A DNA stretch of 24,000 nucleotides, taken from NCBI GenBank assembly GCA_963706825.1, contig CAVPNT010000003.1:1147725-1171724 (forward strand), read 5' to 3'. The notes beneath the pieces were generated by a model that saw nothing but the letters and a program-made list of their open reading frames with translations, was not told where the DNA came from and did no database searches. Source of the stretch: an uncultured Chitinophagaceae bacterium. GTDB lineage: Bacteria; Bacteroidota; Bacteroidia; Chitinophagales; Chitinophagaceae. Positions 1-13,354 of the stretch are shown here, piece by piece (position 1 is the stretch's first letter; each line of letters begins with the position of its first letter). Both the position numbers and the translations under genes were made by a program.

Positions 1-578
1 TCGATACTGCACCATTAATGACAGGAGATATTATCGCTTTGGATAACGATAGGTTTGGCATTATCATAACTCCCGAGTGTGATATTCGGCAAGTAATTAA
101 TCATCCGGAAACGGACTTATTTGAACTACTTTGTTTTTCAAAAGGAGATTTCAAAAAATCTGATTTTAATCTTCAAGCAACAATTAAGGCGATGCCTATA
201 ATTACAAAAGCTGAAGAGCAACAAAATATTTCGTTTACTTCGGCTCAACAAAAAGAGCTAAGTAAGTTATTGAATTCACAAATTAAAGAAGCGGAAAAGC
301 AACTTCAAATAAAAGCTTTTACTCAAACAAATCCAAGATATCATATTCTTCCGTGCTTTGAATTTGAGCAGGACAATCTGAGTGGTATTATTAGGATTGA
401 CTTCAGAAGTAGCTTAAAAATGTTTTTTGGTAAGGATATTACGATTGAAAAAAGAATAGGCAAGGTTAATAGTCCATATATTCAAGAGCTTCGTCAACGA
501 TATTTTTCTTATAAAGGAAGAGTTGGAGTTCCAGGACATTCTAGAAAGTTGCGTGAGTGGATTCTGGATAATAATTGA
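1..578 (+). CDS. hypothetical protein, 5'-truncated by the window edge
   Basis: The frame is open from nt 3, with no stop before the first ATG at 18, so the gene very likely starts upstream of the window. 186 aa are visible and look protein-like (..IIITPECDI.., ..NSPYIQELRQRYFSYKGRVGVPG..). I cannot name a catalytic motif. Confidence 0.55.
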   Translation, partial: DTAPLMTGDIIALDNDRFGIIITPECDIRQVINHPETDLFELLCFSKGDFKKSDFNLQATIKAMPIITKAEEQQNISFTSAQQKELSKLLNSQIKEAEKQLQIKAFTQTNPRYHILPCFEFEQDNLSGIIRIDFRSSLKMFFGKDITIEKRIGKVNSPYIQELRQRYFSYKGRVGVPGHSRKLREWILDNN

Positions 579-600
579 TTTCATAGTTCCTTTTACCAAA

Positions 601-975
601 CTGGCGCCGGTCTCCAGACCTGTGACTGTTCGTTACTAATCCAGGTTGAAAGAATTGGCAATCTAAAGAAAAGATAATCGCCTTAGTTCATTATTTAGTT
701 TTTGTATATTTACTTAATGAGCAGCAAGTACAAATTTGATGACAGATCACCAGTTGTTTGTTTATCTGCATGAAAATCCGGAAAGAACCGGATTTGTAAA
801 GCATCCGATAGATTGGGAGAATAGTAGCGCCATTGATTATTATACTGAAGAAGCAAAAGGCTTATTGGAATTAGTAAGATTAGATTGAGAATTGTCGTAT
901 GTTACTATTCGAATGACGTTTTTATTAAATGAAGGCTAAGTAACCCTCTTACACAGGTCAGAAGACCTGCGCCAG
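601..975. mobile_element. decayed RAYT (REP-associated tyrosine transposase) locus bracketed by inverted REP-like hairpins
   Basis: Imperfect 24-nt inverted repeat: 601-624 (ctggcgccggtctccagacctgtg) matches the reverse complement of 952-975 at 21/24 positions. The right arm is itself a GC-rich hairpin (caggtc-agaa-gacctg, 954-969). The arms flank the transposase stub at 739-888. RAYT genes flanked by inverted REPs is an established arrangement. Confidence 0.5.
739..888 (+). pseudogene. C-terminal fragment of an IS200/Y1-type (RAYT, COG1943-like) transposase
   Basis: The 49-codon ORF MTDHQLFVYLHENPERTGFVKHPIDWENSSAIDYYTEEAKGLLELVRLD* matches the conserved tail of this family (YIHxNPVxAGxVxxPxDWxYSSAxDY...GLxEL). 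The N-terminal catalytic HUH and Tyr parts are absent. A second copy of the extreme tail (KGFVPLVRLEE, sharing ttagtaagattaga) lies at about 1027-1059. Confidence 0.55.
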
Positions 976-1367
976 AGCGATTTTATGGAAACTACGGGAC
1001 TAGGCAATGTAGAAATAAAAAAATCAAAGGCTTCGTACCGTTAGTAAGATTAGAAGAACAAGCAGATAACATTCACAATAGCAGGCCAGACGCAAATATT
1101 ATCAGCTTTTTGTTCGCGATTGAACTGTAGTTCTATCTGACGATTTTTAGCACTTTCATACTGAAGAACTTATAAAGACGACGTAAAACCATTAGCTATT
1201 GATTTTATGAACAATTTATAGCGTGGCCGGAGCGGGAAAATCTTTTATGAGCTTTAATACTTTTCTGTACTTTTATTTCTTTAATTGGCTGACGGCACGG
1301 GCTAAAAGTTCATTAATTCCCTGCCAATGCGTTTGCGGTCATGCTATTAGACACACTCTAATAAATT

Positions 1368-1805
1368 ATGAATACAGACATAACCATTACTGCGGCTGCG
1401 ATTGCAACTCTAATTTCTGCACTAACATCTGCTTGCATGACATTATGGATAACAGGCACCAATAAAAAAAAGAGCTTAGATGATCAATTGGATTCAATTA
1501 TTAAAATTGCTATACAATATCCTTACTTAGAAAGCGAAGCATTTTCATTAGGATGGAAACCGGACTTTGACAAAGACGATGAAAAGTATTTGCGATATGA
1601 TGCATATTGCAATTTGCTATTTAATTTTCTATCCCGTGTTGCTGAACACTTCAAATACAACAAAGAAAAGATTGAAAAATATATTGCCGTAAAAGATTGG
1701 GTTAGGCTACATGGGAATTTCTGGAAAAACCCGACTTCTGCATACGAAAATGTTGACAGTTACGACAAGCAATTCGTTGAATTAATTAATAGTTATCTAA
1801 AATAA
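1368..1805 (+). CDS. small membrane-anchored protein of unknown function (single N-terminal TM helix)
   Basis: ATG start, 145 aa. Residues ~5-29 (ITITAAAIATLISALTSACMTLWITG) form a hydrophobic helix followed by a KKK stop-transfer. The rest is a soluble, helix-rich domain. The stop lies 5 nt before the next gene, which suggests an operon. Confidence 0.6.
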   Translation: MNTDITITAAAIATLISALTSACMTLWITGTNKKKSLDDQLDSIIKIAIQYPYLESEAFSLGWKPDFDKDDEKYLRYDAYCNLLFNFLSRVAEHFKYNKEKIEKYIAVKDWVRLHGNFWKNPTSAYENVDSYDKQFVELINSYLK

Positions 1806-1810
1806 AATAA

Positions 1811-2500
1811 ATGGAAAAAAGAATATTGATTATTGGCAATACTGACGGTTTGCCAGGTGTAAAAGTTGATGTTGAAAGCTATAAGACTTTTTTTAAAAGT
1901 TCTTATGGTGGCGACTGGTATGATAGCGAAATAATCGAAAAGGTTAACTCTTCAAAATCGGAGATAAAAACAACTCTTGAGAACCTAAAGTCTAAATCTT
2001 TGAGTTATTTAATTGTAATATTTAGCGGTCATGGTGGACAGGAAAGGGAAACCGTATTAGAACTGAATTCAATTGGCGAATTAATTAATGAAAGTGAGTT
2101 GAAAAATATTGCTTACCGACAATTAAATATTTTTGACTGTTGTAGAGCTTACCCTGAGACGTTAACCAAGAGCATTATAAATGAAATGCAAACAAGAACT
2201 TTTTCAACTACAAATACAAGAGCGAGATTTGAGAAAAGAATTATGGACGCTAATCACCAACAAGTAAGTTTATATGCTTGTGCGATTGGCGAGTGTGCTC
2301 ATGACACTTCGAAAGGTGGAGCATATTCAAAGAATTTACTTAGTTGTTCATCAACTATTGCAGGAGATTTTAAATTAGTTGGTACTGCCCATGAGGAAGC
2401 AAGTGTACTCACAACAAGAGAATTTTCAGACCAACATCCTGATGCCGACTTGTTAAGGTTGCTTTCTTCACAACAGTTAATAATTGGAATTAAGCCATAG
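1811..2500 (+). CDS. stand-alone caspase-fold protease (peptidase C14 / caspase-HetF-like), 229 aa
   Basis: Caspase signature in canonical order. Beta-1 is ILIIGN. The catalytic His is in YLIVIFSGHGG (His74, nt 2030-2032). The catalytic Cys is in LNIFDCCRA (Cys110/111, nt 2138-2143). Next come SLYACAIGECAHD and GGAYSKNLL, which correspond to the conserved 'A..GQ.A.E' and 'G.FT..L' blocks. Confidence 0.8.
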   Translation: MEKRILIIGNTDGLPGVKVDVESYKTFFKSSYGGDWYDSEIIEKVNSSKSEIKTTLENLKSKSLSYLIVIFSGHGGQERETVLELNSIGELINESELKNIAYRQLNIFDCCRAYPETLTKSIINEMQTRTFSTTNTRARFEKRIMDANHQQVSLYACAIGECAHDTSKGGAYSKNLLSCSSTIAGDFKLVGTAHEEASVLTTREFSDQHPDADLLRLLSSQQLIIGIKP

Positions 2501-2790
2501 TGGAAAGCACGACCCATTTTTAGCGCAACGGTCTCCATTCTGAATTATTTTGTAAGGTTCCAGAAGGCTGTCTTTTTGGAATTGGCAGTTAAGGTAATTG
2601 AAAATAATGTGGAGTCTATGTAAGGTCGAGAAGAAAGTTCATGTTTATCAGTTGTTTCTAAAAGTTCCCCCAATTTGTCCCAAGATTGTGGCTTTTAATT
2701 AGAGCAAGCGTCCCGCTTGTGCTGGAATGAAAAAGGTTTGTTTTTTATAAACAATAAAAGAAAATTGCCTGAATAAACACAAGCGGACGC

Positions 2791-2973
2791 TTGCGCCACC
2801 AAGGGGTGTTGTTATGCAAAACTAAAAACGAGGAAGTAGTAGAGTATGCAATGAGCCGGAATATGTCGCCAACATTGATAAGCCGATATACTATTGCATT
2901 GCCCGATAAAAAATTGCTACAGGCAAAATTGCATGAGCTCTTTGAATTATACTCTATCGAAACAAAAGAATGA
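2791..2973 (+). pseudogene. C-terminal stub of a YhcG/DUF1016-type PD-(D/E)xK nuclease
   Basis: GVLLCKTKNEEVVEYAMSRNMSPTLISRYTIALPDKKLLQAKLHE matches the typical tail of this family (GIILCxxKNxxVVEYAL....I.vSxY...LPxKExLxxxL). About 60 codons are open, preceded by a stop. There is no ATG and no upstream nuclease core. Confidence 0.6.
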
Positions 2974-3047
2974 AATTCAAAAAACATACTGAAAATAAAG
3001 AAGACGTAGCAACAGAATTTCAAGTGCAAGGTTTAGAATTAGACTGA

Positions 3048-3314
3048 GCTTGCGTTACATGGGATGGAGACTTTAGATATTCTCCTGATGAATGGAAATG
3101 TTTTTCTTTTGTAGGCAGCAGATGGAATAATATTAATAAAGCCGAAAGGAAATTATATTTAAAGAATGCGTATCGGGTTTTATTAACGAGAGCACGGCAA
3201 GGAATGGTGATTGTAGTGCCAGAAGGAGATACCGAAGATGCGACGAGGAAAGCGGAATATTATGATGAGACGTTTGAGTATTTAAAGAATTTAGGGATGA
3301 AAATTGTTGAATAA
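3048..3314 (+). pseudogene. C-terminal stub of a DUF2075 (Schlafen-like ATPase/helicase) protein
   Basis: Frame open 3048-3311, stop 3312-3314: ..RWNNINKAERKLYLKNAYRVLLTRARQGMVIVVPEGDTEDATRKAEYYDETFEYLKNLGMKIVE*. 'NAYRVLLTRARQGMVI.VPEGD' is the hallmark C-terminal block of DUF2075 proteins. A TGA at 3045-3047 lies immediately upstream and there is no N-terminal ATPase part. Confidence 0.6.
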
Positions 3315-3333
3315 GTCAACGAAAATAATTCTC

Positions 3334-3915
3334 ATGAATATTTTAGATAGAGACCGGAAAATATTATGGGCAAAATCAGGAAATAGATGTGCAATATGCC
3401 GTCGTGCTTTGATTGCAAATTCAAATGAAATTGACAAGGAGTCTGTGGTTGGTGATGAATGTCATATAAATGGTCAAAAAAAAGGTGCAGCAAGATTCTT
3501 TGAAAACGAAAATATTCTTATGAGTAATTCTTATGAGAATTTAATCCTCTTATGCAAAATACATCATAAAATTATAGATGACCAAGAACAAACATTCACT
3601 GCAGACTATTTACATGAAATAAAAAGTGCGCATGAAAAATGGGTGAATGACACTTTAAATTTTAGTAAGGATAATAATTTTACTGTTCCCCTAAAAAAAT
3701 CGTTTATTAATGGAGGTTTAAAAAATTTAACTCGTATAGACATATCAATTAACTTTTCAACCAAAAAAATTCATGGCAGTTTTAATATTGTTCATAATTA
3801 TTCTGATGACGAAAAAGATCGTTTAACCTTTTTATTTTCCGGTAATTTAATTGAAAATCATCTTTTACTCGGAGATTTTTATGATCAAATATTACCCTAT
3901 GAGGTTAATCCTTGA
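3334..3915 (+). CDS. HNH endonuclease with an uncharacterised C-terminal half
   Basis: HNH/zinc-finger core: SGNRCAICRR...VGDECHI...YENLILLCKIHHKIID. ATG at 3334; the ORF track alternatively starts at TTG 3304, which overlaps the DUF2075 stub. The frame stays open for 43 more codons after the TGA at 3913-3915 (see findings). Confidence 0.8.
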   Translation: MNILDRDRKILWAKSGNRCAICRRALIANSNEIDKESVVGDECHINGQKKGAARFFENENILMSNSYENLILLCKIHHKIIDDQEQTFTADYLHEIKSAHEKWVNDTLNFSKDNNFTVPLKKSFINGGLKNLTRIDISINFSTKKIHGSFNIVHNYSDDEKDRLTFLFSGNLIENHLLLGDFYDQILPYEVNP

Positions 3916-4183
3916 TTAAAATCATTTGGTTCAAAAATAGATATCTGGAGATTGAATGAATTTTCTGATGGCATTTTCAATATTTCTATAAATACACACG
4001 GAAAGAACTACGAAACTCTATATTGGGAAGCCGACAATGACATTTGACGAGCAAACAAGTTGATATCTAATAGCACAATCCTGTTAGCAAAAAATATTTA
4101 CATGAATTGTGTTCTATTTATAAAGTCACCAGCGAGACGCTGACGACAACAGGAGGCAATGAATCCAAAAGTCCTTTAGTGGA

Positions 4184-7100
4184 TTAAAATATGAATTGAT
4201 TTGTTTTCAATTCGTAAAATGAAATAATTGGAATATCAACTATCTTTAGGTGTTTAAGAGGTAAAATGTTTTTTGATATTACCAGCGACTTAATTTTTGG
4301 CTTTCCCAGTAAAGTTAATTTAGCCTGAACTTGTTCAATATTTTCTTCCAGCCATTTGTGGCGCTTAACATGTTTTTCTATTAATCCTTCTTTTCCATCT
4401 AGACCCAAATAATTATCAAATTCCATCTTGTAATCATAAATAAGTTTTGACTGCACCGTATTTTTGCATTCAACGGAATATACAATGTTATTTATTCTGT
4501 CTATTACCAGAATATCAATGTCTCCCTTGTCAGAGTCACTGATAAAAAAGCCTTTTGGTTTAATTTTTATCTCATAATCGTAAATATCCAGAAAAGTATT
4601 TTCTTTTAACCATTTTACCACTTCATCACGATATTCTTTCCCCTTGATTTTGTTTCTTTCAGCTAATAACTGTCTAATTTTCTTATTCCCCTTATCTGCT
4701 TTTAGAGTACCATTAAAAAACAACGACATTAAGTTTTCCGAGGCCGCAAGCAAATGTCTTGCACTCAACAGAAAATATTCTTTGCCATCCTTTTTTAGGA
4801 ATATAATAGGGCGAAGTAGATAAGATAAGCGCCTGTTAAATCTCCAAGGATATGCTTCCCAATTATCATATCCTTCAGGTGGGGTTAAAGGATTTGGTCT
4901 CCTTAAAAATTTCATTCTGTTTAAAAAATAAAATATTTTTTCTTTGTTTAAATCTGTAATTTTTACTACCCATTCAATAAAATCATTTTCCTCTATAATT
5001 CTTACAGATGTATTTTCGGACAAAAGAACAGAGCAAATTGTATGACAGATCATATCAATTTCGCCCAAGGTGATTCCCCATTCTTCCAAAAAAGCATCAA
5101 TCAATTTTTCTGCATAACGTTTTTGCCCGGCACTTGGTAATCTTTCTCGTTTTCTTCTTTTGAAGTATTGGTGAAAATCTTGCGTGTAAGAATGAACCTC
5201 CTCTGCGTATACTTGATCCCTAAATTGCCCCATCCCTTTTCTTTCCATTTCATTACTGATACCGATCCTACCAGAGGGCAATTCAGTAATTTCAGGATCT
5301 TCTATCTCATAATTGATTGAATCAGAAAGGCTGGCATAATTGACAATTTGCATGACGTGTGCGAGTAAAATGTCTATTTCGTCTTCAGAGGCAATTTTTT
5401 GTCCTGCTTCAGCCTGTAGCGTAGCAAATTCGATAAGTATCCTCACTGAAAGACTTGTTTCTACAAGGTCAGCTTCAGAATCTGAAAATTCTTTATGCAC
5501 GTCATAATATTTAGAATAACAAAGAAATTTGGCGGGATAACTAATATGTCTGAATGCTCTTGCCTGAAGCAGAGATTCATGCTTCCGCATGAGAGCAAAT
5601 AGAAAACGCTCCCTATCAAATTCTTTAATTTTTTTTATTACTATTTCATAATGCAACGCTACCAATTTATTAAGGAAATCAGTTTTCTCTTTATTGGTGA
5701 TAGGAGGTATGGAAATTTTACAATTTGACTTTAGCCATGCAAGTTGATTTTCCAGGATGTAAGAAATATCTGCGTCCGGAATGTATCTTTTAGATGGAAT
5801 ATTTGTTTCTGAAATTTTCAAATCCTTATCCCCAGTAAATAACAGTAGCATTTTTCTCTGGGATACCGGAATATGTTTGTCCAATAAAAGTTGCTTGTCT
5901 CCCTCGGTTAGAAGATTACCACCCCGGGCAACTATTATCTTCCCAAAAGCATCCAATAGAAAATCAATCAGAATCCTTTCGCCTCTATTTTCGGGTCCAG
6001 AAAAGAATTGAATCATTTCAATCGGAATGGTGAAAAGGATTTGCCGTTTTATAGGATCTACTTTGAAAGGGATTGAATGATCAACCTCATCATAAATTTC
6101 GAGGCTTTCCAACTGCTCAAGTGCGTAAAACTGCTCGTGAAGTTTTAATTCAATGCGAACTGGAGGCTCGCCTAATTGATTCATATAATCCTTTGCATCC
6201 CCAAATAACTCATTCAACCAATATAGAATAGCAGTTATATACAAATCTCCTTTCCGGTCATTATCCGCAGCTTCGAACCAAATGGGACAGGAATATTTTA
6301 ATAAGCATGAACGCACAATCCCAAAATATACCTCTTGGGATACATATACTGGATAATAGTCTTCTTTCTTAACACATTGCATAAAGCCAAAAACCCCAGG
6401 AGTCCCGTAACCAATTCCAATTTTATCAAGCTTAGACAATCCCCTTCTTCGCACATCTCCAGCTATGTCAAACTCCAGTAAAATGTAATTATATCTCTCC
6501 TCGTCACTATGAAAAAAAGATTCTGAATTGTTTTTATAAAAGTCGAATAATGCCAAGTGAGATGTGAAGGGTGCAAATTGAATAGTTTGTTCAGCGAGTT
6601 TTAAATATTTTACATATTTCCAAAGAGTTAGATTATCAAATTTCCACTCCCTTGTAAGCACTAATAGTTCAACAGGTGTAAGACCAATGAAATAAGTTAT
6701 GTTCTTGAACTGCTTTAGACCAAGAATAGTATTGCTAATTAGCCCAATTTTGGATGTGATAATAATTAACAAGATTTCTTCTACTTCGATTATCCTTTTT
6801 AACTTCTCTATTACACTATAAAATCTTTTTCCTATGTATTCCGAAAAACTTTTTTGTACCTTATATTTTTGTTCTCGGTTTAGAATGTTTTCTGTGAATA
6901 CAACAGCATAAGCGAACTTTCTTTCATCAACTTGCCATATACTTTCATCAAAGAGCATATAATCAGGAGCATTTACAGGCTCCGAAAATTCAAAGCGAAT
7001 TCGTTTCCATCTCATTCTACCAAAGGTTGATAGGATTTCCGGCTGCACAGCTTTTACAAATTCTTTAGCCAATAGAAAGTTTATATTGTATGTCGTTGCC

Positions 7101-7969
7101 TTTCCCAATATAAATTCAATTAAACATTGAACTATTGCAGTAGGCATTACAAGTAAAAATGAGTCATCTATAAATACAAAAGGTTGTCGGAATAAGGGGT
7201 TTTCATTTTCGTTTTCAAATTCAATAGGATGAGTTTGCCACTTCCAAACAAATGCATCAATTGTATTGTATGGTATTTGGTATTTATCACAAATCTCTTT
7301 GATATCAGTAAAGCTGAATTCAAATATATCTTTATATTGAAGAAGGTATTCATCATTCGGGATATATAGTGCATTGCTTAGTGGCAACTCAAATAAACGA
7401 TGCGAGTGATTTAGCGTTTTTGCTATTTCATTCTGTATTGTGAGAAGTAATGTAATAGCGTTTTTGCAATCCTTTAAAAAAGCAACAGGAAACGTTGACG
7501 AGATCAAACTATTGATGTGATATTGCAATATTTCAACCACATCGATAAAAATTCCAGGATAAACGACGTTATTTCCATTTGAATAAACAATGTTTTCGGT
7601 GAAATAGTTGTCTGGTGGATCTTCCCTATAATCCTTTGGAAATTCTTTCAACAAGTCTTTGCCAAGCTGGGCGGTATTTAAAGTGTTCCTTGTTTCACTT
7701 ATAGAATTAACTACTGCTGTAACCGCTACTTCAAGTCTAATATTCTTACCATGATTTTGTGGCTGTAATTGCAATAAAGAAAGAACTTTCAGAACTTCAA
7801 TGGATGGATAATTGTTGCAAATTGAAAGTTTTGATTCCCCTTCCCGCTTTTTTTTTGAAGTAGGATTATTTAAGACTTTGGATCGCCACTCTGCCTTTGG
7901 TTTATGGATACAGCATCTCTTATATTGTTTTCCACTTCCACAAGGACATTTTGCATTTCGGGCAATCAT
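4184..7969 (-). CDS. 1,261-aa protein: N-terminal SEC-C zinc-binding motif, long uncharacterised middle, C-terminal PD-(D/E)xK nuclease core
   Basis: Uninterrupted 3.8-kb ORF in AT-rich DNA. Residues 8-20 are CPCGSGKQYKRCC (nt 7910-7948), the SecA C-terminal type motif. The C-terminus has KGDIDILVIDRINNIVYSVECK (nt ~4463-4535), i.e. D...ExK of the restriction-endonuclease fold. I found no Walker A or helicase motifs in between. Confidence 0.85.
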   Translation of the reverse strand: MIARNAKCPCGSGKQYKRCCIHKPKAEWRSKVLNNPTSKKKREGESKLSICNNYPSIEVLKVLSLLQLQPQNHGKNIRLEVAVTAVVNSISETRNTLNTAQLGKDLLKEFPKDYREDPPDNYFTENIVYSNGNNVVYPGIFIDVVEILQYHINSLISSTFPVAFLKDCKNAITLLLTIQNEIAKTLNHSHRLFELPLSNALYIPNDEYLLQYKDIFEFSFTDIKEICDKYQIPYNTIDAFVWKWQTHPIEFENENENPLFRQPFVFIDDSFLLVMPTAIVQCLIEFILGKATTYNINFLLAKEFVKAVQPEILSTFGRMRWKRIRFEFSEPVNAPDYMLFDESIWQVDERKFAYAVVFTENILNREQKYKVQKSFSEYIGKRFYSVIEKLKRIIEVEEILLIIITSKIGLISNTILGLKQFKNITYFIGLTPVELLVLTREWKFDNLTLWKYVKYLKLAEQTIQFAPFTSHLALFDFYKNNSESFFHSDEERYNYILLEFDIAGDVRRRGLSKLDKIGIGYGTPGVFGFMQCVKKEDYYPVYVSQEVYFGIVRSCLLKYSCPIWFEAADNDRKGDLYITAILYWLNELFGDAKDYMNQLGEPPVRIELKLHEQFYALEQLESLEIYDEVDHSIPFKVDPIKRQILFTIPIEMIQFFSGPENRGERILIDFLLDAFGKIIVARGGNLLTEGDKQLLLDKHIPVSQRKMLLLFTGDKDLKISETNIPSKRYIPDADISYILENQLAWLKSNCKISIPPITNKEKTDFLNKLVALHYEIVIKKIKEFDRERFLFALMRKHESLLQARAFRHISYPAKFLCYSKYYDVHKEFSDSEADLVETSLSVRILIEFATLQAEAGQKIASEDEIDILLAHVMQIVNYASLSDSINYEIEDPEITELPSGRIGISNEMERKGMGQFRDQVYAEEVHSYTQDFHQYFKRRKRERLPSAGQKRYAEKLIDAFLEEWGITLGEIDMICHTICSVLLSENTSVRIIEENDFIEWVVKITDLNKEKIFYFLNRMKFLRRPNPLTPPEGYDNWEAYPWRFNRRLSYLLRPIIFLKKDGKEYFLLSARHLLAASENLMSLFFNGTLKADKGNKKIRQLLAERNKIKGKEYRDEVVKWLKENTFLDIYDYEIKIKPKGFFISDSDKGDIDILVIDRINNIVYSVECKNTVQSKLIYDYKMEFDNYLGLDGKEGLIEKHVKRHKWLEENIEQVQAKLTLLGKPKIKSLVISKNILPLKHLKIVDIPIISFYELKTNQFIF

Positions 7970-8263
7970 AATAAACCTCTGTTTTATACTCTGTGTAAAA
8001 ATATTAACTCAGTTCCACTTAATTGTTTATTTTTTATGTGCGACAGCCGATATTCCTTTTAGTAATCTTAAAATCTCAATTATTTAATTTTTTTTCAAAG
8101 AACATTAATTCATAAATTCTAAAATAAAATCGTGTTGTTTCCATATTATTATTATAACCATATTATGTAATCGGTAAATAGCAATGTACAATTTCGGTAA
8201 ATAAGGAATGATACTCCCAGATGAGTGAAGCGGACTATGCTTCTTTTTTTGTAGAGCACCTTA

Positions 8264-8463
8264 CATTCCGGAGCATGCTGCCTTCCAATGCTGTAACATG
8301 TTGACCACCTTTTTCGGAATAATTATCAACACTTTTAATTTGCAATTTTAAATTTATTCCGGGATGTTGACCCATCTTTATTATTCAGAATTATTTTTAT
8401 TCAGATTTTTACGTAGTGCCATTCCGGCATATTGAGCCACCCTGCAGGACATATTGATTATGC
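8264..8463. repeat. degenerate direct repeats, core CCGG-N-AT(A/G)TTGA-NN-CCA
   Basis: Copies: acatgttgaccacc (8296-8309), ggaataattatcaacac (8316-8332), ccgggatgttgacccatc (8359-8376), ccggcatattgagccaccc (8424-8442), aggacatattgattatgc (8446-8463). Three of the AT(A/G)TTGA cores are spaced about 65 bp apart. A perfect 16-bp palindrome tccggcatatgccgga follows at 8514-8529, and ccggacttg occurs twice at 8524-8544. Confidence 0.6.
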
Positions 8464-8715
8464 TTCCCCTTCGTTTCAAATAGTAGTTTGAGCCGGATTA
8501 TTACCGGGTTAACTCCGGCATATGCCGGACTTGCCCCGGACTTGATACGGCAATGGTGGGGGAATAAAGGCAGCCTTGGTACTGTTAGATTACATTTAAT
8601 ACTGCAAATAACCGAGGTTATTTAATTCTTTTACTTATAAATTAAAACCCCTGACCCCTAGCATCGTCAACACACAGAAGCTTTTGCTACCAAATTTGTG
8701 CTATTAGACCTTGAG

Positions 8716-8751
8716 CAAAACGAAACTTTAGTTCAAAACGAAACTTTAGTT
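8716..8751. repeat. perfect 18-bp tandem duplication (caaaacgaaactttagtt x2)
   Basis: Read directly: 8716-8733 and 8734-8751 are identical. The duplication lies immediately 3' of the stop of the minus-strand gene at 8769. Confidence 0.9.
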
Positions 8752-8768
8752 ATGGAGTGTAATATTGA

Positions 8769-9770
8769 TTAATTATGGTTTTTAATTTGTTGCACAATAT
8801 CATAATACTGCTCTTTGTAGGATATTATTTTATCGCTCCAAGTAAAGTTGTGTCCGAATTGTTTATCCCACATTTGTAGTCCAACGCAAGCTATACCCCA
8901 AGCGAAATGATTATCAGCTAGGTTCAGTCTCTCTAGTGCATTTGTCAACCTATCTTCTGTATTTGGATGCTTTACGCCCTCAGTGTTAGAACTGAAGAAA
9001 AACATTGACAGAAATCCAAATACAATTCCCGTCTCGACAGCAAGTCTATGTGCTACCGAGAATGACGTATCGGTATATGAAATTCCTTTTATCATCATAT
9101 CAATGGCATCATTATCTGCTTCAACTTCAAAAGCTAAAAAGTGCGAGTTAGTTGTTTCTTTAGTAATTTGATCCACATGTTTTTTTAAGTGACTAAATTC
9201 ATGACATAGTATAAATTTTACAGCTTCCGTATAAAATAGGTTTGTTTGCTCAACATAGTCTCTTTTTTCAGCTAAATAAATCTCCGGATTTGGTAGCTCA
9301 TTTTTGGCCCAAGATTGAAAGTCAATAATTAAATATTTAGCATACTCGAATATCTCTTTTGCCTTGCTAATATTGTCTTGCGATATTTGTTTTATCACTT
9401 TTCCATTTTCCTTATTCACTCTAGGATAATCTATTGTTTCTATATAGGTCACATAAATGGAATATACACAACACCATAGAAAAGATAAGAATGTCTCATG
9501 TATCTCAATTTGTTTTGTTTCATGGTTTATTCTAGGCGTCCTGTACTTCTTGTTGTCAATTTTTATAGGCTCCTCACCCAATAAAAGATTTAATTCCTTG
9601 TTGATTTTACCTTCGTCAATTTGCTTTTGCAAATCAGCAAAGAATTCTTTGTTGGTATTAATAAACATATAAGTTAGCATGTGGTGAATAACTCTCACGG
9701 GCTGCGTCCCAATATGAATACCAGAATTATAGTGATTTATAGCTCCCGTAGTCTGAAATACCCAGTTCAT
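8769..9770 (-). CDS. HExxH zincin metallopeptidase, ImmA/IrrE- or Lit (peptidase U49)-like
   Basis: 333 aa. ILCHEFSHL (HEFSH = nt 9189-9203) is followed 20 residues later by FEVEADNDAIDMM. This gives the HExxH...ExEA(D/N)xxA pattern of ImmA/IrrE-type and Lit-type zincins. Assignment to either named family is not verified. Confidence 0.7.
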   Translation of the reverse strand: MNWVFQTTGAINHYNSGIHIGTQPVRVIHHMLTYMFINTNKEFFADLQKQIDEGKINKELNLLLGEEPIKIDNKKYRTPRINHETKQIEIHETFLSFLWCCVYSIYVTYIETIDYPRVNKENGKVIKQISQDNISKAKEIFEYAKYLIIDFQSWAKNELPNPEIYLAEKRDYVEQTNLFYTEAVKFILCHEFSHLKKHVDQITKETTNSHFLAFEVEADNDAIDMMIKGISYTDTSFSVAHRLAVETGIVFGFLSMFFFSSNTEGVKHPNTEDRLTNALERLNLADNHFAWGIACVGLQMWDKQFGHNFTWSDKIISYKEQYYDIVQQIKNHN

Positions 9771-9800
9771 AAGTCTATAGGTAGTGATTTTATTTTTTTA

Positions 9801-10712
9801 TTACAAGTTTCTCAGAAAGTCATCTTCTGATAAAATTTCAAGCATTGAACCTTTCTCAATGAACTTGATTGCCTTTTCTTGTTTGCTGCTCATCCCGTCG
9901 TCTCCAACAACTCGATAGTCTTGTTGTCCTACTATTAGAAAGTCGGTGTCCCTGGTTACGTTTCCACCAATATTTCCGCCAATATCTGCAATGGTCTGGT
10001 GTGCAGATGCTCTCACCATTGAAGATAATGTTCCTGTAAAAACAACTGTCCTTCCATAAAATATACTTTCACGATTATGTTTTGCTGGATCGCCAATGAT
10101 TTGTGTTAAGTCTTTTGGTTTATAAATCCGCTTTGTTTCTGATGGTCTATAATCACCATCATAAAGTTGTCCGACAGATATCTTTAATTTTTCTGGAAAA
10201 TCATCAATAGAATAAACTCCTGCAATGTCAAATGCTTTAAGAGCTAACTCTGCTGTGGCTTTACTGTCTGAACCCGCGCTATGATGATTCAAATCTATAT
10301 TGTTGATTTTACAAAGTGTTTTTAAATCATAAGCCGGTAATGCCGGCCATATCGATTTCGAAAAAATATAGCTACAGGAATAATTTAATGTCGGAAAAGG
10401 TAATTGATATGTTTGTAGCGTGTTTCTTAAAACACTGATATCAAAGCTCGCGTTGTGCGCAATCAAAAACTGATTTTCAATAAGTGGTTTTAATTCCGTC
10501 CATAATTCACTAAATTCCGGTTTATCGGCAACGTGTTCCGGTTTAATGCCATGAATCAAAATATTGAAATAATCAAATTCAGAATATCTTGGTTTAATTA
10601 ACCATGATTTTGTTTCTACGATTTGCCTCTCTTTTACGAAAGTCAAACCAATCTCGCAGGGACTATCCCTTTCTGAAGTTGCCGTCTCAAAGTCAATAGT
10701 TATAAAGTTCAT
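9801..10712 (-). CDS. DEDDh 3'-5' exonuclease (DnaQ/epsilon-like) fused to a C-terminal BRCT domain
   Basis: ExoI is ITIDFETA, ExoII is LIAHNASFDISVL, ExoIII is HHSAGSDSKATAEL (H-x4-D). The C-terminus GRTVVFTGTLSSMVRASAHQTIADIGGNIGGNVTRDTDFLIVG...EILSEDDFLRNL is a LigA-type BRCT. Its stop lies only 30 nt upstream of the peptidase gene start. Confidence 0.85.
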   Translation of the reverse strand: MNFITIDFETATSERDSPCEIGLTFVKERQIVETKSWLIKPRYSEFDYFNILIHGIKPEHVADKPEFSELWTELKPLIENQFLIAHNASFDISVLRNTLQTYQLPFPTLNYSCSYIFSKSIWPALPAYDLKTLCKINNIDLNHHSAGSDSKATAELALKAFDIAGVYSIDDFPEKLKISVGQLYDGDYRPSETKRIYKPKDLTQIIGDPAKHNRESIFYGRTVVFTGTLSSMVRASAHQTIADIGGNIGGNVTRDTDFLIVGQQDYRVVGDDGMSSKQEKAIKFIEKGSMLEILSEDDFLRNL

Positions 10713-10895
10713 AATAGAAGTAGTTATAAAAGGCAGTTACTAATATTGGAATGAATATATTTCCTCTTTTAAATAATGATCGAAAAATATTCCAAGATTC
10801 TGCGATTTATTTTTCATCACCAGGTTCTGCGTACAATATTGAGCCTCATCGAAAGCACTACATATCCTACAAACTCTTTTTTGTTGGCTATAATT

Positions 10896-11756
10896 TTACT
10901 CCAGGCTTATTTTTGAGGTCCTGCATTTGCCGATTAAAAAATTTATGAAGGAACTGCAAACAACCAACATGAATTTAGCATCGTCAAAATCAGGCTGTTT
11001 ATGTTTATCAATAATTGCGTGTCTAATTCCACTTTGCTTATTGTTTGTTGAAGCATAAAGTTTCTCTAATGCTCCTTTAAATTGTTCGTCAATTTTTAAG
11101 CCTTTGCCTTCTAAATTATTCAATGCTTTGCCTAACGTATTCTCACCTGTCAAAATTCTACAGGTTGTCTCTACTGAAGAAATTGCTTCCTTTATTGAGT
11201 TTCTGTAATCTGGTTGAACCTTATCGGAAAGTTTAGATAAAGCAGTAGATAAATGAATGTTAGCTCCTTTTAATGCTGTGAATTGATTTGCATTGATCAA
11301 TGCTTTTTCAATTTCATCAATTTCGATTTTATTGGTGATTGGTGCAATTTGATTATTTATGAATCTGTATGCAGAAAACTCTTTTTCAAGTAATAAATTT
11401 ACTGCATCTATATACCTTACCCTGTTAATGCCATCAATTGCCAATGTTGATAGATATTCAATAAAGTCGTAAACTTGGTACCATTGATCATTAAAGAATC
11501 TTTTTCGAATGTATGCAATTGAATCAGAAGGATATTTTGGAACAATATCTACTGGAAGTTTATAAAATTTATGCCAAATTATAGAAGTAAACATTGGAAA
11601 ATCTCCGTCACCGCCATATCGTCCATATGTAGAAATATTGTCTAGAATATGAATTTTTGTCAAATTCCATAAGCCATTTAATAATTCCATGTCAATACTT
11701 TCTATTTGTAAGTCCTTTATCGAAGGCTCTTTTCCAATTCTTTGAGAAAATTTCAT
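10896..11756 (-). CDS. AbiJ-like abortive-infection protein (AbiJ-NTD4-type N-terminus plus HEPN/Abi_C-like C-terminus)
   Basis: The N-terminus MKFSQRIGKEPSIKDLQIESIDMELLNGLWN matches the characteristic start of AbiJ N-terminal-domain proteins (MxFSxRxG..P....Q.eS.d.eLrN.LWN). The C-terminal helical domain contains SGIRHAIIDKH, a candidate HEPN R-x(n)-H motif. Confidence 0.6.
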   Translation of the reverse strand: MKFSQRIGKEPSIKDLQIESIDMELLNGLWNLTKIHILDNISTYGRYGGDGDFPMFTSIIWHKFYKLPVDIVPKYPSDSIAYIRKRFFNDQWYQVYDFIEYLSTLAIDGINRVRYIDAVNLLLEKEFSAYRFINNQIAPITNKIEIDEIEKALINANQFTALKGANIHLSTALSKLSDKVQPDYRNSIKEAISSVETTCRILTGENTLGKALNNLEGKGLKIDEQFKGALEKLYASTNNKQSGIRHAIIDKHKQPDFDDAKFMLVVCSSFINFLIGKCRTSKISLE

Positions 11757-12262
11757 GGTCGTTAAAAATTAATTACAGCCAACATTTAGAAAAGTATCCG
11801 AAAGGCCCGCTTATAAAGTCCCGCATTAAAAATTACTCTACGTGGCTTTGCGGCATACTTTTGCGTTGACCGATGTCGCCCTAATTGGAAACAAACGTGT
11901 CAATAGGTTCTTTTCTTTATGTTTGTTTTTAAAATTTAGTTTCGGCTTCAATACTGTTGCCATTAAATGTTCGAGACTAAAAGTAATATTTTATTTTCAA
12001 AGTTGTTCATTAATTCAACTCATCTTATAAAAAATAAAATCCTCAATATTTCTTCGTTTACTATTAAAGACTTCCGCTCTATAACAGTCATGCACAAACG
12101 AAATTATCCACGAATAAAAACCGCCGATATCTATCCGTTTACTGAATTGTTGATTATCCATCTATAAATAACAGAAACACATTTAAATCTATTAATCAGG
12201 TCAAGCTATATTTACTGCATACCCACCAAAAGAATAGATAAAAGAATTGTCAGACATTTATA

Positions 12263-12505
12263 CTATCTTCCAATCAAACCAAAAAATTGTTCGAGTGTAA
12301 GATCCTTCGCATCACACATCAATTCTAAGGTTTCAATTGACATTTTATAATTTTTATTTGAAACAATTTTACGTGCAATCTTTTCGTCGATGAAATGATC
12401 ATTTGCAAATTTGGTATACATGTAGGAACCGTCGTCATACGCATATTCGCACATCCAATTTTGAATAATATAGTCGTTAATGACAGAACCGATTTTTTGC
12501 TTCAT
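12263..12505 (-). CDS. small helix-turn-helix (XRE-like) protein
   Basis: 80 aa with an ATG start. The C-terminal MSIETLELMCDAKDLTLEQFFGLIG resembles the last helices of XRE-family HTH domains. The N-terminal half is atypical. Confidence 0.5.
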   Translation of the reverse strand: MKQKIGSVINDYIIQNWMCEYAYDDGSYMYTKFANDHFIDEKIARKIVSNKNYKMSIETLELMCDAKDLTLEQFFGLIGR

Positions 12506-12635
12506 TTAACGAAGTAACAGGAGCTATAAAAAAAAGTCACGGACGATTGTCCGTTGTAATAAAAAACTCCTTATATTTGACGATGAAAATATATATCATT
12601 ATTCTTTTCGAGTAATGGGCTATAAAGAGTCTCGC

Positions 12636-12800
12636 CCCCGAACGTGACAATTTGAACCGCGAGAGTAAGTATAGCGCCCAATCACTACATTGCGTATAGC
12701 AAAAGGGTTGGGCCTACTTATATCTTGTGGTTCAGCCGCCCATATTGGGCGGAGGGTCGTCACACCCGGGGACAAAGATAGAGTGGGTCCAACCCTTTTA
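12636..12800. ncRNA. candidate structured RNA or recombination-site element at the island boundary (unclassified)
   Basis: 14-bp stem: aaaagggttgggcc (12701-14) pairs with ggtccaaccctttt (12786-99), with one G-U pair. It encloses a 7-bp hairpin ccgccca-tat-tgggcgg (12736-12752). A possible long-range pairing joins ccccg..gtgac (~12636-12657) with gtcac..cgggg (~12759-12771). The element is locally GC-rich within AT-rich non-coding DNA. Strand is unknown. Confidence 0.25.
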
Positions 12801-13354
12801 ATGTATTCACTCTTTCAGAAGACTCATCCAAATCAAAAAGGATGAGAGCATTTCAAGTATATACAAATTTATTGTTTCCAACTAATTGGTTGCGCCATTC
12901 ATTGATTTGCATGTGCCGCTGTTTCTATCTCTTCCTTTCCGGCTCCATCACTCTCAAAACAATCTTTCACTACTTCCAGAATTATATTTTCAAAACATAC
13001 CAATGCATCAAAGATAACTTTGAAAAACCATCGATACTGTTATTTCAGCAGTATCCTGTAGCCCTCCTGGTTCTCCATTTAATACAGTGGCATTTGGCGA
13101 ATGAGGTCGAGAGCCTTATGGTCGTTCAATATGCCTCCAAACCACGTAATCCGGAATAAATAATTTCGTGTAAGCGTTGCCGTTATACAACAGCTTTTTG
13201 TGTACCGATCAATGTTATACACACAACTGGCAGTAGCCTTCGTGCATTTTTCTTTTCATGTGTTGTAACGAAGGCAATGGCTGCCTTTGGTGACGGCCGG
13301 GCAGCCACTGCTAGCATTTCTTTCAACCAATTTTTTTATTCCAAATTATGTTTC

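Follow-up and report, generated by a model that had tools for sequence, protein, structure and literature searches.

A 24,000-nt stretch of DNA from an uncultured Chitinophagaceae bacterium (assembly GCA_963706825.1, contig CAVPNT010000003.1, positions 1,147,725 to 1,171,724 of the forward strand; this whole stretch is hereafter the window) carries two adjoining genes, one for a 145-aa single-pass membrane protein and one for a 229-aa caspase-fold protease, and raises the question of how a protease that consists of little more than its catalytic domain could be told when to act. Caspase-like proteases drive a range of bacterial immune pathways, among them gasdermin systems, type III-E CRISPR, type IV Thoeris, EACC1, Pepco and MBL modules. 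To our knowledge, in all of these pathways the cue to fire reaches the protease from a sensor domain or from a signalling enzyme. The pair described here has neither, yet it is a strict two-gene unit, and its small protein is represented by more than 300 clusters at 50% identity. The activation route of a bare 229-aa caspase with a 145-aa membrane protein would define a minimal caspase activation logic, and working out the pair would assign a function to an orphan protein fold. The analyses presented below indicate that the two genes probably constitute an undescribed two-gene immune module. The features of the pair in the window are the following (coordinates of the window, all on the + strand).

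1368..1805, + strand: gene of the 145-aa single-pass membrane protein, an open reading frame (ORF) with an ATG start, encoding an N-terminal transmembrane (TM) helix and then an all-helical domain of about 110 aa
1380..1454, + strand: codons of the predicted TM helix (residues 5-29), which is rich in Ala, Ser and Thr; the basic cluster KKK occupies residues 33-35
1806..1810, + strand: intergenic spacer of 5 nt between the small-protein ORF and the caspase ORF
1811..2500, + strand: gene of the 229-aa stand-alone caspase-fold protease (clan CD, C14), an ORF with an ATG start and a match to PF00656
2030..2032, + strand: codon of the catalytic His74 in the SGHG motif, invariant in 32 homologues, with at least 95% conservation across 38 pairs
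2135..2146, + strand: codons of Asp109-Cys110-Cys111-Arg112, with the DCC motif at nt 2135-2143; D109, C111 and R112 each show at least 95% conservation across 38 pairs
2156..2203, + strand: codons of the caspase linker (residues 116-131), with pLDDT below 50 and variable alignment columns, between the Cys strand and the next helix

Both genes together span about 1.1 kb, and the 5-nt spacer points to an operon or to translational coupling of the small gene and the caspase gene. A first-pass annotation made from the letters of the window had described ORFs of 145 and 229 aa lying 5 nt apart, the first with one N-terminal TM helix, and the coordinates and the hydropathy calculations agree with it. 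Both ORFs are genuine and not chance products, since 190 homologues of the small protein (in a 90%-clustered database, E-values down to 1e-85) and 239 homologues of the caspase (E-values down to 1e-129) were retrieved; the caspase homologues were 221-272 aa long among the 120 matches listed. A profile search of a 50%-clustered library with the small protein returned 311 clusters, 216 of them at E<=1e-10.

The small gene and the caspase gene form an obligate, co-inherited and mobile two-gene unit. The small-protein profile was used to scan one genome per species for 185,579 species, which yielded 38 loci, a number that is a lower bound because the scan was pattern-based. In 34 of the 38 species loci the aligned caspase region began no more than 19 nt downstream from the small gene; three of the other four loci stop at a contig end, and one holds just a truncated match to the small gene. 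Insertions lie between the small gene and the caspase gene in two loci (L025 and L041), and in a set of 38 non-redundant pairs, two interrupted loci aside, the ORFs were separated by anything from a 62-nt overlap to a 15-nt spacer. Linkage was kept at 25-35% identity, where each of three small-protein homologues (P0395 in locus L050, P0320 in locus L052, and a Leptospira interrogans plasmid copy, locus L054) was followed by a C14 gene. The two genes are thus linked almost everywhere that homologues were found, across phyla and down to this level of identity. When the lookup was made from the caspase side (n=3), the small gene was found directly upstream each time, although in one of the three (L071) it seems to be fragmented. 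In the 38 non-redundant pairs, on which the conservation values given below were also calculated, the pairwise distances of both proteins co-vary (Mantel r=0.44, reached by 0 of 5000 permutations).

No third conserved gene was detected among 112 flanking ORFs from 29 species loci, where the commonest Pfam family was seen three times and represents extra caspase paralogues. Two genes of the window, the upstream ORF 18..578 (186 aa) and the HNH gene 3304..3915, were considered as third partners and rejected, as neither had a counterpart in the first nine related loci.

Several loci depart from the simple arrangement of one small gene and one caspase gene. Two caspase paralogues stand around one small gene in a Treponema locus (L034, 5276-7186; caspase, TM, caspase), and two follow it in L022 (4069-5967) and in a Prevotella locus (L037, 5977-7933; both TM, caspase, caspase), and these doubled caspases may be a two-protease cascade or a redundancy. 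In a Chryseobacterium sp. (L071, 4567-5687), one of the three loci approached from the caspase side, the caspase is intact and two short called genes (36 and 73 aa) take the place of the small gene, which suggests a disrupted partner beside an intact protease. In a Puia sp. (L048, 5222-6456), a 253-aa protein with the motifs HFDCHG...SFSSCKG comes before, and not after, a divergent homologue of the small protein (6001-6456). These motifs resemble a clan-CD His/Cys dyad; the protein has no Pfam match, its hhalign comparison with the caspase profile gave a probability of 1.2%, and it may be a cryptic protease partner.

The 229-aa protein matched the Pfam model Peptidase_C14 (PF00656) over residues 4-181 with an E-value of 1.3e-14 and 54.9 bits, compared with a gathering cut-off of 21.4. 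AlphaFold2 (AF2) models it as one compact domain of caspase fold (pLDDT 90.5, pTM 0.87) without an extra domain, and disorder (pLDDT below 50) is confined to residues 116-131. The closest structures in a Foldseek search were the MALT1 paracaspase (E-value 5.7e-9, TM-score 0.62) and then caspases 9, 3 and 7 (E-values to about 1e-7, TM-scores of about 0.62-0.66), at only 13-16% identity in the alignments. By its PF00656 score, its His-Cys dyad and its caspase/hemoglobinase alpha/beta fold the protein belongs to peptidase family C14. The Pfam match and the single-domain model bear out the first-pass annotation, which had seen little beyond a C14 domain in this protein, with no sensor or extension. 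The protein carries no signal and resides in the cytoplasm.

Conservation at 95% or more was found for H74, D109, C111, R112 and D20, and at 85-95% for D165; in 32 close homologues the His/Cys dyad, in the order His then Cys, is invariant. The same earlier annotation had placed the active site at the SGHG histidine and at the DCC motif with either Cys110 or Cys111 as catalytic cysteine. His74 and the DCC motif are present, and the alternative of Cys110 falls away: Cys111 is the predicted catalytic nucleophile, because C111 is conserved at 95% or more and C110 is not.

The disordered segment of residues 116-131 is equivalent to the linker between p20 and p10. Residues 132-136 lie between this linker and position 137, which is at the start of a helix and is basic (R or K) in 38/38 sequences, and R137 is accordingly a candidate autoprocessing site as judged from the alignment. 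In a pairwise global alignment with an assumed sequence of the MALT1 caspase domain, D20, H74, D109 and C111 fell on D365, H415, D462 and C464 of MALT1; D165 was matched by eye only, and presumably corresponds to MALT1 E500. Profile alignment to assumed MALT1 and caspase-3 sequences gave local fragments only, and the pairwise alignment recovered the N-terminal anchors and not the p10 half. Because D20, D109 and D165 occupy S1-pocket positions of MALT1, the caspase is predicted to cut after Arg or Lys rather than after Asp, a prediction to be used as a lead and not as a test.

The TM segment of the small protein (residues 5-29) is uncharged, is rich in Ala, Ser, Thr, Ile and Leu, and is followed by KKK. 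Its best 19-residue Kyte-Doolittle window scored 1.82, and an N-terminal window of at least 1.6 was present in 37/38 homologues. The TM-helix residues A10, A13 and S17 are invariant in close homologues, and small or polar residues gather on one face of the helix (mean R 0.34 compared with 0.26 +/- 0.02 after shuffling; 0 shuffles reached the observed value). Basic residues follow the helix, with positions 30-35 being basic in just 40-76% of sequences. In the remainder of the protein L41, P52, E55, W63, R76, Y77, L83, F85, N86, W111, H115, W119 and Y132 are conserved at 95% or more, and C81 is also near-invariant.

The AF2 model of the small protein is all-helical (pLDDT 86.2). A fold search of this model against PDB and BFVD gave no match at E<=0.001, no family was found for the protein in a search of Pfam and NCBIfam, and neither the small-protein profile nor the caspase profile had sequence relatives with a solved structure. 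On the strength of the predicted model the small protein is an orphan fold of helical type.

The predicted topology is N-terminus out and C-terminus in, with the domain of about 110 aa facing the cytoplasm. This placement follows from the positive-inside rule and from a fusion protein (P0286, in locus L058) that carries a secreted MBL-fold domain on the N-terminal side of its TM helix. In this fusion the unit of TM helix and helical domain stands behind the MBL-fold domain, and a caspase gene is still next to it. In four further proteins (P0250, P0252, P0291 and P0297) the unit is fused behind polytopic membrane regions, or has a second TM helix and a further helical region after it.

The two-gene unit is conserved over at least five phyla. 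It was found mostly in Bacteroidota, and also in Beta-, Gamma- and Alphaproteobacteria, Chlorobiota, Ignavibacteria, Spirochaetota and Geobacteraceae; the patchy spread, together with cross-phylum identities of 45-65%, points to horizontal transfer. The neighbourhoods of the pair in other genomes include a CBASS operon; DUF4062, Abi_2, MazG and SLFN-like helicase genes; type I restriction-modification, PARIS, bSEFIR and SIR2-type genes; and ParE, Phd and BrnT clusters, with one toxin-antitoxin (TA) cluster in Ignavibacteria. Leptospira plasmids carry the pair amid TA genes. In a prophage from IMG/VR (two near-identical prophage contigs) the pair comes directly after a gene for a CI-like repressor, in a region that reaches an integrase gene, and two further loci (L052 and L053) look similar; a tblastn search of GenBank phage genomes with the small protein gave no match. 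Homologues of the pair were therefore found repeatedly in defence-gene, prophage and plasmid neighbourhoods, by a qualitative listing of neighbours.

Directly downstream of the TM and minimal-caspase pair in one locus (L072, 5865-7234) a gene for a ThsB-type TIR protein (136 aa) is accompanied by a gene for a 315-aa Peptidase_C14 protein. These two downstream genes have the architecture of type IV Thoeris, so that two different caspase-based modules are adjacent in this locus.

Searches of PADLOC 2.0, NCBIfam 20 and Pfam assigned the pair to no named system, and no description of it was found in the literature searched, which did not cover subscription journals. Three outcomes that would have spoken against the idea of the first-pass annotation, namely absence of linkage in other genomes, loss of the catalytic His/Cys among homologues and membership of a named system, were thus all checked, and none of them was observed. 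The pair is considered a candidate new defence system of the protease-plus-small-partner kind, set apart by its sensor-less caspase and its orphan-fold partner, and we infer an abortive-infection-type module at the inner face of the cytoplasmic membrane.

For the mode of action we favour, tentatively and at somewhat less than even chances, a licensing model in which the caspase cleaves the membrane partner encoded 5' of it and thereby unleashes a membrane-damaging TM helix. The caspase would probably be latent as an unprocessed monomer with its 116-131 linker intact. Upon infection it would be activated and, with its predicted specificity for Arg or Lys, would cleave the upstream-encoded membrane partner, parting the cytoplasmic domain from the Ala/Ser/Thr-rich TM helix. 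The freed helix would then self-associate and harm the membrane, and the cell would die or be arrested before phage release. The best candidate for phage sensing would be the conserved 110-aa domain of the membrane protein, since the caspase has no sensor domain. This model is favoured because it is how the characterised modules with a small protein before the protease work: in gasdermin, EACC1 and Pepco modules it is the product of the small 5' gene that serves as both substrate and effector, and cleavage unleashes a membrane effector (10.1101/2025.11.14.688446). The first-pass annotation had suggested that the protease may process the membrane protein, or the reverse, and this suggestion draws on analogy with these modules. 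It is favoured also because the TM helix of the small protein shares the conserved small-residue character noted for EACC1 by Kaur et al.

A number of observations weigh against the licensing model. Residues 3-50 of the small protein form one continuous long helix in the AF2 model, and positions 30-35 contain no sharply conserved basic cleavage motif. The cytoplasmic domain of the small protein is more conserved than the caspase (mean distance 0.55 compared with 0.62), and its high conservation with invariant polar and aromatic residues fits a sensor, an enzyme or a ligand-binding domain better than a disposable pro-domain. The predicted Arg/Lys specificity depends on an assumed MALT1 sequence and on one by-eye match. 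The defence context is a qualitative neighbour listing rather than a calculated enrichment, and housekeeping genes flank the pair in some loci. The strong conservation of the cytoplasmic domain favours a reversal of the roles, which is the chief rival, though somewhat less probable than the licensing model: the membrane protein would be the sensor and clustering platform, a minimal 'death-receptor-like' anchor that perceives a phage-derived or membrane-proximal cue by way of its cytoplasmic domain or its TM helix, and the caspase, dimerised by proximity, would be the executioner of many host or phage proteins. Conservation as strong as that of E55, R76, N86, H115 and the aromatic cluster is what one often sees in a domain that binds or senses and so guards some conserved feature of the host, a sensor on the partner would suit a caspase that lacks one of its own, and the N-terminal fusions P0286, P0250 and P0252, being extracytoplasmic or polytopic, are receptor-like. 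Precedents exist for the caspase side as well, as caspases without a dedicated effector can defend alone (10.1101/2025.11.14.688446) and promiscuous killing by an Arg-specific caspase is established in type IV Thoeris (10.1101/2024.10.24.620036). The same sensor role was once proposed for the EACC1 TM helix by Kaur et al. (PMC7159879), but that proposal was later replaced when experiment showed a cleaved pore-former (10.1101/2025.11.14.688446), and a small gene 5' of a protease gene is the order of the substrate-effector modules.

The remaining alternatives are all improbable. A TA-like system, in which the caspase would be constitutively toxic and the membrane protein its inhibitor or sequestering antitoxin, so that loss or degradation of the inhibitor frees the protease, would agree with the tight bicistron, the small upstream gene and the overlaps typical of translational coupling, and also with the occurrence of the pair amid classical TA genes on the Leptospira plasmids and in the Ignavibacteria cluster. 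Antitoxins, however, seldom depend on a conserved TM helix, and they usually vary more than their toxins do, which is the reverse of what was found here; two caspase paralogues per membrane protein misfit a 1:1 neutralisation, and the Chryseobacterium locus, with its seemingly fragmented upstream gene and intact caspase, speaks against an essential antitoxin. It is about as improbable that the pair represents a strongly diverged branch, devoid of a sensor, of the EACC1-caspase two-gene system, with which it has in common the gene order and a TM helix of small residues (PMC7159879), and whose caspase model NF047832 ('caspase, EACC1-associated type') is the best NCBIfam match of the caspase of the pair (E-value 8e-4). 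This match, however, covers residues 13-104 only and reaches 19 bits compared with a cut-off of 140, the small protein matches no Pfam, NCBIfam or PADLOC model at E<=1 save for a weak match to Drt1b, and the two systems differ in fold (helical compared with alpha+beta), in caspase fusions, which the pair lacks, and in host range. Least probable, by a little, is that the pair is no conflict system and instead a housekeeping or developmental membrane-associated protease with its anchor, which might serve the regulated proteolysis of, for instance, envelope or signalling proteins. Ordinary metabolic genes do flank the pair in some loci, and a cellular role would be in keeping with how well both proteins are conserved; the spread is nevertheless patchy, with 50-65% identity between homologues of Bacteroidota, Beta- and Gammaproteobacteria, Spirochaetota and Chlorobiota and only 38 loci (a lower bound) in the 185,579-species genome set, and the pair is met with in prophages and on plasmids, in a low-GC island and next to a variety of defence systems.

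It is possible, though less likely than not, that the pair is the simplest known receptor-to-caspase death axis in any organism. The membrane protein would sense infection, by its conserved cytoplasmic domain or its small-residue TM helix, and would cluster an Arg/Lys-specific caspase at the membrane, and either the caspase or a released TM peptide would kill; the pair would then be a new defence system, and the small protein a new sensor/effector fold unrelated to gasdermin, EACC1 and Pepco which may share an ancestral membrane module with Drt1b. The pair could also help to account for further small TM partners of defence enzymes that have no explanation so far, of which Drt1b is an example.

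In the window itself the left half (about 1-13,000) has a GC content of 31-37%, compared with 40-47% for the SusC/SusD-type housekeeping genes to the right, and is a low-GC defence island. The gene at 3304-3915 (+) encodes a 203-aa protein with an N-terminal HNH domain like that of PDC-M68A and of SAVED-HNH CBASS effectors (E-values 4e-26 to 2e-25), without SAVED and with no assignment for its C-terminal half. The gene at 4184-7969 (-) encodes 1261 aa that begin with a SEC-C zinc motif in the N-terminal part and show kinship to Upx in the C-terminal half (PADLOC E-value 2e-32; NCBIfam 139 bits compared with a cut-off of 1900), and by these scores the protein is a putative distant relative of the anti-phage protein Upx. 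Three genes in a row at 8769-11756 (-) likewise encode defence-type proteins: a peptidase U49 resembling Lit (PADLOC Lit, 1e-25), a protein with DEDDh exonuclease and BRCT parts (PDC-S48, 1e-27) and one of AbiJ_NTD4 type (PDC-S32, 3e-93).

A gap of 790 nt lies upstream of the pair. An Rfam search of the whole window, this gap included, gave no match, and promoter- or terminator-like sites in the gap were at or below the number expected from shuffling. A short ORF in the gap (736-888, +) encodes ...NPERTGFVKHPIDWENSSAIDYY... and has a putative likeness to the C-terminal motif of Y1 transposases of the IS200/RAYT type; its matches to PDB sequences were at chance level only. The ORF may be a decayed remnant of a mobile element.

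Among described systems the EACC1-caspase system has the nearest architecture, as both have a small 5' gene, a single conserved TM helix rich in small residues and a caspase gene directly next to it. The first-pass annotation had proposed a distinct pairing, the small protein being too short and too different to be a gasdermin. The part on gasdermin is upheld, since the protein is a 145-aa, all-helical orphan fold with no gasdermin match in PADLOC or Pfam and no match in PDB; the pairing is, however, less unprecedented than that annotation had it, given the gene order and the small-residue TM helix of EACC1-caspase. The TM helix of EACC1 is strongly conserved and rich in small residues (PMC7159879), and caspase cleavage, with a reported site at Asp49, releases a pore-forming fragment (10.1101/2025.11.14.688446). 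The predicted P1 residue of the pair is basic, in contrast to this Asp49 site. EACC1 is a protein of about 115 aa and of alpha+beta type, with beta strands for autoinhibition and pore assembly, whereas the small protein of the pair is all-helical with a 110-aa cytoplasmic domain. Family searches and the AF2 model indicate that the small protein is not an EACC1 domain, and it is set apart from EACC1 by description and not by a direct profile comparison. EACC1 caspases have large and variable C-terminal fusions, of which about 50 kinds are reported, whereas the caspase of the pair is single-domain, with the narrow length range given above for the matches listed. EACC1 is concentrated in multicellular Actinobacteria, and the pair is found mainly in Bacteroidota and Proteobacteria.

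In gasdermin operons, too, a membrane-damaging partner is encoded upstream and is licensed by a caspase-family protease, and some loci have more than one protease paralogue, comparable to L022, L034 and L037. The gasdermin-linked proteases usually have repeat or NACHT-type sensors, and the partner in our pair differs in being without a gasdermin fold and pre-anchored by its TM helix. The likeness to type IV Thoeris lies in an operon of two genes with a small protein encoded upstream plus a caspase-like protease in defence islands (Rousset et al., 10.1101/2024.10.24.620036). The Thoeris caspase is Arg-specific, kills promiscuously and cuts EF-Tu (10.1101/2024.10.24.620036). The difference lies in the TIR partner and in a C-terminal ligand-binding domain on the Thoeris caspase; our pair is without TIR, and its 229-aa caspase is without that domain. 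TIR domains were seen just in occasional neighbours of the pair, for example in L072, where the TIR gene has its own 315-aa C14 protein.

The RexAB system of phage lambda, which stands here for comparable abortive-infection modules of two genes in prophages, consists of a cytoplasmic and a membrane component whose genes adjoin the repressor gene in the prophage, and RexA is not a protease. The likeness of RexAB to the pair (compare the repressor-adjacent locus L056) is a functional analogy only, with no sequence or fold relationship.

Drt1b is a small TM protein found beside about 18% of DRT1 reverse transcriptase (RT)-nitrilase genes, with an unexplained function (PMC13275509), and resembles the small protein in size and in having one N-terminal TM helix. 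The PADLOC model of Drt1b matches the small protein weakly (E-value 0.0046; residues 2-143 on profile positions 13-147 of 151), with a score to which the TM helix may contribute greatly; only 3/28 family members matched Drt1b, the best at an E-value of 9e-4. No RT or nitrilase gene was present among the top-listed families of the 112 flanking ORFs or in the annotated contexts. RmrA and PDC-M01B were rejected as relatives of the small protein, their matches being weak and sporadic. Kinship with DUF6082 was likewise rejected, as 3/28 members matched at E>=0.056 and the hhalign comparison with a true DUF6082 protein gave a probability of 8.9%. A DUF6082 protein (E-value 5e-17) followed immediately by an HNH_3 protein is encoded 3 kb downstream of the pair in Parasulfuritortus (L001, 10993-12324); it belongs to another pair of a small hydrophobic protein and an enzyme and is not detectably related to the small protein of the window.

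With the MALT1 paracaspase, the metacaspases and the orthocaspases (clan CD, C14) the caspase of the pair shares the D-x-C-R motif and the acidic positions of the S1 pocket. It differs from them in that it is without death, Ig or p10-type accessory domains, is bacterial and has a dedicated membrane partner.

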